This document shows, piece after piece, positions 55,901-61,900 of a stretch of 64,000 nt of DNA. Made by a program: the position numbers. Origin of the DNA: Escherichia coli (GTDB lineage Bacteria > Pseudomonadota > Gammaproteobacteria > Enterobacterales > Enterobacteriaceae); assembly GCF_050320075.1 (NCBI RefSeq), contig NZ_CP190018.1. The stretch is one strand, 5' to 3'. Every line of letters starts with the position of its first letter. The first letter of the stretch is position 1.

Positions 55901-58900
55901 AGCGCCGTCTTCGTTACTACCTGTCTGATTGCTGCATTCGGCAGTATTATGATGGGACTGTTTGCTAACCTGCCAGTTGCGCTGGCACCTGCTATGGGCC
56001 TGAATGCGTTCTTCGCTTTTGTGGTTGTACAGGCGATGGGCTTGCCGTGGCAAGTCGGGATGGGCGCAATCTTCTGGGGCGCGATAGGTCTGCTGTTACT
56101 GACGATTTTCCGCGTTCGCTACTGGATGATAGCCAACATTCCGGTGAGTCTGCGTGTGGGCATTACCAGCGGTATCGGCCTGTTTATTGGCATGATGGGA
56201 CTGAAGAATGCAGGTGTGATTGTCGCTAACCCGGAAACGCTGGTGAGCATCGGTAATCTGACTTCTCACAGCGTACTGCTGGGGATCCTCGGCTTCTTCA
56301 TCATTGCTATTCTGGCCTCACGCAACATTCACGCGGCGGTGCTGGTTTCCATCGTGGTGACGACGCTGCTGGGCTGGATGCTGGGTGATGTCCACTACAA
56401 TGGCATCGTTTCTGCGCCGCCGAGCGTAATGACTGTCGTGGGTCATGTAGATTTAGCCGGGTCGTTTAACCTTGGGCTGGCAGGGGTGATTTTCTCTTTC
56501 ATGCTGGTCAACTTGTTTGACTCCTCCGGTACGCTGATTGGCGTGACAGATAAAGCAGGACTGGCGGATGAAAAAGGTAAATTCCCGCGCATGAAGCAGG
56601 CACTGTATGTCGACAGCATCTCTTCCGTGACCGGTTCGTTTATCGGGACTTCTTCTGTTACGGCGTATATCGAGTCTTCTTCCGGCGTTTCCGTTGGGGG
56701 GCGTACCGGCCTGACGGCAGTCGTTGTTGGTCTGCTGTTCCTGCTGGTTATCTTCCTGTCGCCGCTGGCGGGGATGGTGCCGGGATATGCCGCAGCTGGC
56801 GCGCTGATCTACGTGGGCGTACTGATGACCTCAAGTCTTGCTCGCGTGAACTGGCAGGATCTTACTGAATGTGTTCCGGCGTTTATTACCGCTGTGATGA
56901 TGCCGTTCAGCTTCTCGATTACCGAAGGTATTGCGCTGGGCTTTATCTCCTACTGCGTGATGAAGATTGGTACCGGACGTCTGCGTGATCTAAGCCCGTG
57001 CGTAATCATCGTTGCGCTGCTGTTTATCCTGAAGATTGTGTTTATCGACGCTCACTAAAATCGATAGCGCGTTAAAAACCCGCCATGCATGTTTGCTGGC
57101 GGGTTTTTTATTTAGCTCTTAACTCGCTGAATAAACTCACCAAATGCAGTCAATTGCCCGGTCAGGTGGTCCAGCGTACCCTGATCAATCACTTCTCCGG
57201 TTTGCGGATCAACTTTGTTCTGAATCACGCCGCCCATAAATTCCGGCTTGTTCATCACCATTGCATCGAGGAAAACCAGAATCTGGCGCAGGTGATACTG
57301 ACAGCGCGCGCCGCCAATCACGCCCATTGAGCTGGTCTGAATCAACACCGGTTTACCGGCCAGAGGTTGATCCGGCAGGCGGGAAAGCCAGTCGATGGCA
57401 TTTTTCAGCCCACCCGGTACCGAGTAGTTATATTCCGGCGTGACGATCACCACACCGTCAGCCTGACGGATCTGTTCCGCCAGAGCTTCAACCGTTGCTG
57501 GAAAACCTTCTTCCTGCTGTACGTCAGCGTCATACAAGGGAATGTCGGCAATGGAAGGTAACGCATTGACTTCCATGCTCGCCGGAGCAATTTTCGGCAG
57601 GGTACGTGCAACCATGCCATTAAATGAGCCTTTGCGCAGGCTCCCCAGTAACGTAACCACCTGCAATTTTTCAGACATGATGACTCCTGTGGTTGTCTAT
57701 CAATTTGGCGAAAAAGCCTTCACGGTAGAGAGCTGGGCAAAACGCATCATCCGGCTGGTAGGATTGTTGGCGCGGCTGTGAATATCGGGCAGGCTTTTCC
57801 AGCCGTGTTTGCCATCTAACTCCCAGACACTGAGCTTTTCAATCGTGGGCGTGACCGCCACGGACCACACCAGCACGTCCTCCGCGTCGCATAACGCTTC
57901 TACATGATTTACATGAGCACATTTCAGGCGTCCGGCAATGGGCAGCAGCTGCAGATCGCGCGGATCGTCATTCAAAACATCACCGGTTAGTTTTAGCACG
58001 CTTCGGCGCAGCGTGATGAGCTGCGCCCACGCTTCGTTTGGATCATTTTGTTTACTGATCCATAGCGATTCATTGCTGGAAAAGGTGTGGTTATCGGGCG
58101 CGTGTGGACTATGAAACCCGCGCGTCGCACGCTGCAGTTCCATATCGAGGCCACATTCACCTTCGGTTGTTAACGCCACGCCAACCATATTCCCGGCATA
58201 GGAAATAGAAAACGAAGGCAAATTTTTATCGCTGAAAACCGGTTTACCTTTCGGCAGGGTGACGATTTCCGGCAATTCGCCAATGCCATACAGCATGAAC
58301 ATCAGTTCTGCGAGTAAACCTCTGGACGCCAGAAAACGGCTTTGACGATGAGGGGGAATGTTTCGGGCTTCTTGATGACACTGGGAGGGGAGACGAACAG
58401 AAATCAGATGTCCTTCCGTTAAAATCCCTCGGGCAAAGTGAGTCGCCATTTTTCGCTCCATGCTTAATGGTCCATTATGAATACAAGAGTAATCATTTAC
58501 TGGAATGATGGACAGACTAAAGCGGCTAAAAGTTCGATTCAGACAAGCTTATTACAACTTTTTTACATTTTATTGTGAAATTGGGTCGCGTTTCATACGA
58601 TTCGGTTATGCCATCGACGCGTAAAGATGTTGAATGGTTTCCCGTAACCAGACGATCTTCGGATTATGGCTGTTCCGTTTATGCCACAGCAGGGAAAAAG
58701 GGACTTCCAGCTTTTTTTGCTGGCTTTCGTCAAACGGGAGAGGAAGAGCAACCAACGGCAGTTGGTGGAGTTGATTGTAGTACTGACAGTAGCGCGGTGC
58801 GGTCGCCAGTAGCAGATTGTCGGGCTGTGCTGCCATAAACAGTGACTGCTCGAATTCCGGCAGGCTCATAGCAATCGTGCGTTCGCGCCCCAGCTCCTGT

Positions 58901-61900
58901 AACGCGCCCAGGTATCGCTCTGTTCCCAGCAAATGCTGATATGCGGATAACGTAAAAAGGTGTCCAGATTCCACGTTTCATGCAGTGCCGGATGATCTTT
59001 TCGTAACCAGACGCAGGGCACATCACTAAACAGCACTTCATAATCAATGGCTAACGGTAGCGAGCTTAACAGCTCCCGCGAACGGGGATGACTTTCGCGA
59101 CCGGAAAAACCAATATCCACTTCACCACGAGTAATGGCATCTAAGGAATCGTAATCCCAGTTACGTAATTTGATGGTCGCCTGCGGGTAACGTTGGTAGA
59201 TCCGTTTCGACAGCGCATTAAGCATGATCATCATCAGCGGCGATTCCGCCGCCAGCTCAAACTTCAGGCCGCGCGGTGTCTGGTGATGCGGTTTATCCAG
59301 CAGCAGGTTGCTCATTTGCATCCACTCCGCCAGATTTTGCTCCATGCTGACCATTAGCGGTGTGGGCGACAGCCCCAGCGGTGAGTTCACAAAGAGCGGG
59401 TCGTCAAACCACGCTCTTAACTTTGCCAGCGACTTACTCACCGCCGAAGGGGTCACGTTCATCCGCTTCGCCGCTTTGGTCACGCTGCGCTCCTGCATCA
59501 GCAGTTGCAGACAGAGCAGCAGATTGAGATCAAGCGTGGTGATGGATTTCTTCATGAGCGGCAACCGGGCGTCCAGGCGCGACGAACATAATCAGCAACA
59601 GGCTCACTATGCTACAGGCAATCAGAATCCCGATCAGCATATTCCATGCGCCGATACCAACCACCGCTGCCAGCCAAATCCACAGTGACGAACCGCAAAC
59701 CTGCGCAATACCTAAGGTCGAGCTGGCTACGCCCGCGCGTAATGAAAACGGCCCTAACGCCTGACTCATCGCTACGCCAAAACCTACCGAGAAACCGGCG
59801 CAAATCAGCGTGATACCAAACAGAGAAACCGCATGGGAAGGTGAAACGGCAAGGGTGATGCCCGCCGCCAGGAATAATACCTGCGAGGTGATCATCAACG
59901 TACGTGGCTTAAAAATTCCCAGCGCAAATGGCGTGGAGAATGAAACGGTCATGCTGACGCCAGCGGTCAACGCCATAATGGTGGCGTATTCTCCGCGCTC
60001 AAAACCCATGATTTCCATCAGCAATACCGGCGACGTGTTGACGAAGGTGAGGATCACCGAAACGCTGAGGGTGGTGATAACAACACGGCTGAGGAAAAAC
60101 CGGTTAAGCAGCGACTCGCTATTTTCTCGTGGTTTGTCCGAATTTGTGGGGGCCGCAGGGCGCGTTTCTTTTAAAATAAACAAAGACAACATCAGTACCG
60201 CGATGCCCATCGTTGCCATCGTCCAGAACAGACTCTGCCACGGGAATTTAAGCATAATCAGGTGTCCGAGCACTGGCGCTAACACCGGAATGATGCAGGT
60301 AATGCCGTTGAGTAACGACAGCACTTTAGCCCGACGTCGATCATCCAGTGTGTCGCGTAAAATGGCGAACGCAACCACGTAACAACAGCCCGCGCCCAGC
60401 CCCTGTAGAAAGCGCCCTGCAAGAAATAACGTGCTGGTTTCAGCCAGTGAACAGAACACCGAGGCGATAATAAATAGCGCCGCGCCGGGTATGGCGACAG
60501 GCTTTCTCCCTGAACGATCGGCCACTTTACCGGCAAATAACATCGCAGCTGCCATGCCCGCCAGATAAACGGAGAACGCAATATGCAACTGCGCTTCGCT
60601 GGCATTGAGATCGGCGGCGATGCGCGGTAAACCAACGAGGTACATATCAATCCCGGCGGGATAAAGTAAAACCAGGGCAAAACTACAAATCAAAAAGCGG
60701 GACATGGGCTAAAGCGTCCTGATAGTAAGGTGACGCAAAGCATACGTGGTGAAGGAGAATCAGGCGAGTTGCCATTTGGACATAAGTGATTTCCTGACAG
60801 GCAATAAGCCAGCGAAATGGCTGGCTTCTTGAAGGGATCAGCCAAATTTAGGTAACACGTTAAAGACGTTACCGAACCAGCATAAAATTACGGTTATACC
60901 AAAGAGAATGACAATCGCCGGAATAAGATTGCCGCCCCAGACCGTGAACATCTGATTGGGAAACTTCTTGCGAGCTTTGATTGCCAGCACCGCGGGGATA
61001 ATGACCGCCCAGATGGTGGCACACAGTCCGGCACCGCCGATCCCGTAAATGAAGCCGTTCGGGAAGATCAGATACAACAACGCAGGTGGCAGGAAGGTTA
61101 ACAGCACGGTTTAGAAACGCCCGCCGTGGGAGTTATCAATCTTAAACAGATCCGCCAGATAATCGAACAACCCCAGCGTGACACCAAAGAACGAACTGGC
61201 AACAGCTAAGTTGGAGAACACCAGCAGGCAAAACTCGATAATGCCGTGCTGTTTGGTGCCGAGGAACGATTTGACCAGCGAATCAACGTTGCCGCCTGAG
61301 GAGATTATCGCCTTAAAGCTTTCTCGTGGGATATTCCCCATCGTGCAATAGAGCCAGAAGAGATAAATCACCAGCGCCAGCAGCGAACCGAAGACCACGC
61401 TTTTGATTAGCTTATCTTTGCGTTTGCCATAGCAAATAATCAGGCTGGGAATATTGCCGTGGAAACCAAATGACGCCAGACACACCGGCAAAGCCATAAA
61501 GATATACGGGAAATAAGATGTACCCGCAGTGGTGCTGGTGGAATCGCGCAGAATGGAGTAATCGACCTGGAAGAAGAAAGAACCAAAAACAATTACAAAG
61601 GAGATAATCTTCAGCCCAAGGAACAATGAGGTAATACGACTGGCGGCTAACGAGCTTATCCACAATACGCTGGCAACGAAAATGGCTGTGCAGATCCCGA
61701 CAATACGTGGATTAGCGTGATAACCCAAATTCATTGATATCGTTTCACTAATGATCGCACCATTAGCAGAGATATAGGCATAAGTGAGGATATAGAGAAC
61801 GAAGGCAACGGTAATACCGCTGATAATGTTCCAGGTGTTACCGATTAAATCTTTGGTGATGGTGTTAAAACTGGAGCCGACGGGATAATTTAAATTTGCT

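Follow-up and report, generated by a model that had tools for sequence, protein, structure and literature searches.

A 10-bp deletion very probably makes yidZ a clonally inherited pseudogene in a small ST38-related sub-lineage of Escherichia coli

The subject of this study is the gene yidZ, which encodes a LysR-type transcriptional regulator (LTTR), in a 64,000-nucleotide stretch of Escherichia coli DNA (contig NZ_CP190018.1 of assembly GCF_050320075.1; "the window" hereafter means this whole stretch). The gene lies on the minus strand, 3' of mdtL, which it overlaps, and 5' of yieE, in the same order as in K-12 and four other strains; K-12 yidZ (b3711, 319 aa) shares both the tnaCAB-mdtL-yidZ-yieE-yieF synteny and the 26-nt overlap with mdtL seen in the window. 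The list of open reading frames (ORFs) of the window contains two minus-strand entries at this place, one of 232 aa with a TTG start (58866..59564) and one of 122 aa with a GTG start (58606..58974), which lie in separate frames and overlap by 109 nt. A preliminary description of the locus, made from the sequence, had reported these two ORFs at the same positions and had interpreted them as the halves of a yidZ gene split by a frameshift, caused by a 1-bp deletion in what was either a pseudogene or an erroneous sequence. The ORFs and the identity of the gene were borne out by our analysis; the size of the lesion and the choice between mutation and error had to be revised or decided as described below.

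The N-terminal ORF carries the helix-turn-helix domain that had been ascribed to it (Pfam HTH_1, PF00126, E=1.9e-14), while LysR_substrate (PF03466) is split near position 122 of its 209 profile positions, with positions 10-124 matched in the N-terminal ORF and 121-206 in the C-terminal one. The same partition is seen with the NCBIfam equivalog for YidZ (NF007581, 319 positions), of which positions 1-217 are matched by the N-terminal product (E=1e-143) and positions 233-318 by the C-terminal ORF (E=5e-47). Because the two ORFs match consecutive stretches of both NF007581 and LysR_substrate, we read them as consecutive parts of the single gene yidZ and not as a chance pair. Once the frame is restored, the resulting 319-aa protein matches positions 1-318 of the 319 in NF007581 with 682 bits, the curated cut-off for a full-length match being 314 bits, so that both the equivalog score and synteny place it in the YidZ orthologue group; it differs from K-12 YidZ at 6 of 319 residues. 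With HTH_1 at the N-terminus and LysR_substrate at the C-terminus, YidZ has the domain layout of an LTTR, and its nearest solved structures, 2esn (2e-20) and DntR (1utb/2uyf, about 1e-17), are full-length LTTRs with which it can be aligned along its entire length.

Annotated records including K-12 place the start of yidZ at the ATG at 59555. The TTG at 59564, 9 nt 5' of it, is merely the earliest start available once a stop has been passed, and we rejected it as the start codon: it lies inside mdtL, no annotation uses it, and the 232-aa form that it would yield was not found in our protein collection, where the 229-aa form starting at the ATG is present.

Alignment of the window with an intact yidZ allele shows a single gap of 10 nt between gene nt 652 and 653, and the same gap is obtained against five intact alleles. 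Where these read ACCTGGGCGC TGGACAATGT GTTACAGG, the window lacks TGGACAATGT and reads GGGCGC followed directly by GTTACAGG; accordingly, the best intact matches in megablast cover 1,081 bases against 1,071 of the query, and a clean frame of 319 codons is regained once the 10 nt are put back. Compared with b3711, the window thus lacks intact nt 653-662 and can encode only residues 1-217 plus a junk tail. The junction, between 58904 and 58903, falls inside the interval 58895-58915 in which the preliminary description had expected the lesion. Its 1-bp deletion, by contrast, does not survive the alignment: the real coding sequence measures 950 instead of 960 nt. The combined span of 959 nt given there is correct as arithmetic (59564-58606+1), but its comparison with 960 nt is not, since it was counted from the TTG; that the two numbers differ by one is a coincidence, because 9 extra nt minus 10 deleted nt leave a net difference of 1. 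Since 10 and 1 leave the same remainder on division by 3, the frame is shifted just as it would be by the loss of a single nt. The coordinates of all features are collected in the table.

Features of the yidZ locus in the window (positions refer to the full 64,000-nt stretch)
Feature	Position	Strand	Description and basis
yidZ pseudogene (very probable)	58606..59555	-	950 nt against 960 nt (319 codons) in intact alleles; ATG at 59555, original TAA at 58608-58606; PGAP, alignment, NF007581
Deletion junction	58903..58904	-	TGGACAATGT (gene nt 653-662) is present here in intact alleles; alignments with five intact alleles
Open frame from true start	58866..59555	-	229 codons and TGA; 217 native residues, then a 12-residue tail; translation, Pfam
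Native 217 residues: helix-turn-helix, linker, first half of effector-binding domain	within 58866..59555	-	
Out-of-frame tail, 12 codons	58869..58904	-	followed by TGA at 58868-58866; translation
Stranded 3' remnant in original frame	58606..58902	-	YidZ residues 222-319 and stop; no 5' start codon of its own; LysR_substrate 121-206 of 209
87-codon ORF from internal Met233 of YidZ	58606..58869	-	ATG overlaps the new TGA (ATGA); called separately by gene callers
122-aa "C-terminal ORF"	58606..58974	-	mechanical ORF; first ~24 residues are the native upstream part read out of frame
mdtL (major facilitator superfamily efflux pump), intact, 391 aa	59530..60705	-	lies upstream in the operon; overlaps the yidZ start by its last 26 nt; contains TTG 59564

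The placement of the deletion is unique, with no microhomology at its ends, and the lost TGGACAATGT is non-repetitive and contains no homopolymer. No direct repeats were found within 200 nt of the junction, and a DNA hairpin at the junction is unsupported, the minimum free energy of -6.8 kcal/mol (z = 0.52) being no better than that of shuffled sequence. Slippage as the mechanism of the deletion thus finds no support, given that neither microhomology nor a direct repeat nor a supported hairpin is available at the site.

The effector domain of LTTRs is built from two lobes, RD-I and RD-II, with two cross-over strands between them, and its C-terminal segment returns to complete RD-I. By shifting the frame at codon 218 and bringing up a stop 12 codons further on, the deletion would yield a 229-residue product that extends from the winged-helix DNA-binding domain through the linker helix to about halfway through the effector-binding domain. 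The last 102 residues (218-319), which comprise what remains of RD-II, the second cross-over strand and the C-terminal portion of RD-I, would be gone. Because the C-terminal half of the two-lobed architecture is missing, the effector domain is expected to be unable to fold, and truncated YidZ is, as far as its sequence tells, most likely misfolded and non-functional. Two considerations weigh against a complete loss of function: an N-terminal LTTR fragment with its linker helix can in principle dimerise and bind DNA, and the lineage has spread to 111 or more assemblies, so that the loss is at least tolerated.

It could be argued from such considerations that the split gene still works, either as a 229-aa DNA-binder blind to its effector or with the help of a reinitiated 87-aa C-terminal piece that complements the N-terminal fragment. 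The Met233 ATG and the new TGA share bases (ATGA) in an arrangement known to permit termination-reinitiation, both pieces together comprise 304 of the 319 residues, isolated N-terminal domains of LTTRs are known to dimerise via the linker helix, and among draft assemblies the lineage is no rarity. However, the ATGA overlap results by chance from the point at which the shifted frame happens to stop, no Shine-Dalgarno sequence lies within 20 nt of the Met233 ATG, and the middle of a domain with two lobes linked by cross-over strands has lost the 15 residues 218-232 and gained 12 junk residues as a tail. In one carrier of the deletion (L009, GCA_003389065.1), mdtL has been lost as well through a nonsense mutation, which is more in keeping with an operon in decay than with one being maintained. 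We thus regard a working split gene as improbable, and we give just as little credence to the notion that truncated YidZ is stable and still occupies some of its approximately 118 sites as an effector-blind dimer, maybe aided by the reinitiated 87-aa piece. If a stable fragment did exist, the lineage would have a rewired rather than a null regulator, possibly one selected in an ST38-related (sequence type 38) clone that spread between poultry and humans.

An inactive yidZ presupposes that the 10 nt are missing from the genome and not just from its assembly. Our nucleotide search was a megablast comparison with 5,426 complete E. coli genomes, in which the yidZ region was found in 5,423 (with at least 80% of the region in 5,421). 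At least 5,419 of the 5,426 contain the region but not the junction of the window, so that a reference gene with the same two-frame structure, which was looked for as it would undo the reading as a frameshift, is not what is found. A 50-mer junction probe with 25 nt on either side, which cannot seed a match in intact genes, was present in exactly two of these genomes: YZLc1-3 (NZ_CP123240.1), from chicken faeces in Yangzhou, China, and Ec-U3 (NZ_CM192149.1), from human urine in Ouagadougou, Burkina Faso. Both are annotated by the Prokaryotic Genome Annotation Pipeline (PGAP) with a "yidZ, frameshifted" gene (N4725_RS25175 and ACVUFI_RS06175, respectively) that is nucleotide-identical to the window over the whole of yidZ. 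The two are independent assemblies, with chromosomes of 5.21 and 5.08 Mb that are 136 kb apart in size and, in 36.5 kb near yidZ, differ by 2 single-nucleotide polymorphisms (SNPs) and 1 indel. In the protein collection, the exact 229-aa product (P0001, found in 138 index blocks) is encoded on 111 contigs from NCBI, ENA and Logan, and the 87-aa ORF (P0046) likewise on 111 contigs, invariably beside P0001.

The preliminary description had left pseudogene and sequencing error side by side, and of the two only the pseudogene stands. An assembly that had dropped bases from an intact yidZ might seem conceivable given that espY4 in the same window shows a 1-bp A7/A8 homopolymer difference and that some assembly indels could be errors. 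Nevertheless, the lesion in yidZ is a loss of 10 bp of complex sequence without any homopolymer or repeat, its junction is identical in two independently sequenced complete genomes, and the exact truncated product occurs on all those contigs from three sources. Because a 10-bp loss of complex sequence recurs across different laboratories, we do not take it for a sequencing artefact and consider an error scarcely credible; with the junction recurring in independent assemblies, the mutation that interrupts the frame is truly in the genome.

The history of the deletion can be followed through close relatives of the window, which differs from YZLc1-3 by one base in 36.5 kb and from Ec-U3 by 2 SNPs and a homopolymer indel. 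With a single difference over this length, the window almost certainly comes from YZLc1-3, a strain for which a literature search brought up no publication, or from an isolate nearly identical to it. Among close intact alleles, WP_001309861.1 is the commonest; its carriers include NMBU_W05E18, a close relative that is documented as ST38 and phylogroup D (PMC7311804). Relative to this allele, the window has two nonsynonymous changes, T291S and K312Q, both located downstream of the deletion. We rejected the possibility that these represent decay after inactivation: both are already present in another intact allele (P0017; S291 and Q312), found on 32 contigs (e.g., GCA_034161365.1 and Logan ERR985158), and hence are older than the deletion. 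P0017 resembles the window in S291, Q312 and flanking sequence but, unlike the window, keeps the 10 nt and a complete 319-codon gene. Over about 7 kb, the only differences between the window and one genome with the intact S291/Q312 allele (L010) are the 10 nt, a SNP at position 58029 in yieE and a SNP in tnaB that is private to the window. At 58029, the ancestral base persists in L009, which carries the deletion. These alleles point to an order of events in which the T291/K312 allele gave rise to the intact S291/Q312 allele, which then suffered the 10-bp deletion before the yieE SNP arose and led to the window. The deletion thus appears to be a single recent event, inherited clonally on an ST38-related phylogroup D background.

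The substitution at 58029 in yieE (57700..58449, minus strand; WP_106475276.1 versus WP_001296581.1) is common to the window, YZLc1-3, Ec-U3 and one further sequence (L008) but is found neither in L009 nor in the genomes with an intact yidZ allele. As it is present in only part of the deletion carriers, it marks a sub-branch younger than the yidZ deletion. L009 itself has a point mutation in mdtL at the equivalent of window position 60539, a nonsense change that leaves ORFs of 55 aa and 331 aa, so that its mdtL-yidZ operon is broken in both genes.

We are therefore highly confident in the overall interpretation that a real 10-bp deletion makes yidZ a pseudogene, inherited clonally from one recent origin. 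That the two-frame layout is instead regulated, through programmed ribosomal frameshifting or a phase-variable switch, has nothing in its favor beyond the two frames themselves (the genuine annotated example in the window being the transposase of the IS1 insertion sequence elsewhere) and can be dismissed, since nearly all orthologues are single-frame and the layout is not conserved, 3 1/3 codons of coding sequence have been lost, the junction has no slippery heptamer, simple-sequence tract or repeat that could host a programmed shift or a switching indel and no local structure above background, and the intact ancestral allele refutes it.

Other broken yidZ alleles arose differently. In Shigella flexneri, yidZ (fragments P0008 and P0033; contigs L012-L015) is interrupted independently after gene nt 649, at about window position 58907 and therefore only 3-4 nt from the deletion. 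The sequence there runs ACCTGGG and then TGAG, at which point the contigs stop; this break is apparently due to an inserted element, unlike the deletion of the window. In P0033, foreign sequence is followed by GGGCGCTGGAC. The sequence suggests a 3-bp GGG target duplication made by an IS3-family element, and the end of the insert is presumably that of IS600 or another member of the IS3 family. The nearness of the two lesions could be a coincidence or could reflect a fragile spot. A second, independent site of indels or errors is the A7 run at 58712-58718 (gene nt 838-844), which has its normal length in the window. Deposited YidZ variants of other E. coli strains are frameshifted at this run (P0006, 323 aa, and P0042); they differ from the allele of the window both in their site and in how they came about (slippage in the homopolymer or an error of sequencing) and affect only about the last 35 residues.

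Several other genes in the window are disrupted. In tnaB (62085..60838, minus strand), position 61113 is A in the window but T in the RefSeq sequence of YZLc1-3 and in Ec-U3, E1, 266917_2 and four draft genomes; the A turns codon 325 of 415 from AAA (Lys325) into TAA (61113-61111) and cuts the tryptophan permease TnaB to 324 of 415 residues. This nonsense codon is private to the window, all eight comparison genomes having AAA. It may have arisen very recently, may be an error that a later version of the assembly put right, or may distinguish one isolate from another. In espY4, which encodes a type III secretion system effector (52345..54752, plus strand), a run of seven A (54266-54272) stands against eight in Ec-U3 and E1 and causes a frameshift that ends the ORF at 54309; PGAP annotates the gene as frameshifted in YZLc1-3, and in Ec-U3 it is intact. 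In contrast to the yidZ lesion, the shorter run may be due to real slippage or to a sequencing error in the homopolymer. Between phoU and espY4, an IS1B-family element at about 50724-51492 adjoins a truncated "type III effector protein" gene (51494-52036); at this site, the close relative E1 instead has two intact genes, one for a hypothetical protein of 832 aa and one for a pentapeptide-repeat protein, and its tnaA contains an IS1.

The frameshift in yidZ is already annotated in public records, and the gene is an ordinary lineage-specific pseudogene that gives no pointer to a new mechanism. The value of the present analysis lies mainly in a corrected description, with a lesion of 10 bp instead of 1 bp, a start at ATG 59555 instead of TTG 59564 and a sequencing artefact excluded, and in the deletion's use as a clean marker of clonal descent for a small sub-lineage related to ST38 that has been sampled from chicken in China and from human urine in Burkina Faso. 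Beyond this, the deletion lineage is a natural yidZ knockout that can be compared with surviving sisters carrying the intact allele. In K-12, where it is reported to be a broad regulator, YidZ binds 118 sites detected by chromatin immunoprecipitation with exonuclease treatment (ChIP-exo) and its knockout alters the expression of 74 genes, with gadA, gadBC, hdeD and hdeAB-yhiD going down and rbsD, malM, malE and malX going up (PMC8464067). By analogy, it is a reasonable guess that gene regulation in the lineage would be shifted toward lower expression of the gad/hde acid-resistance genes and higher expression of mal and rbs genes.

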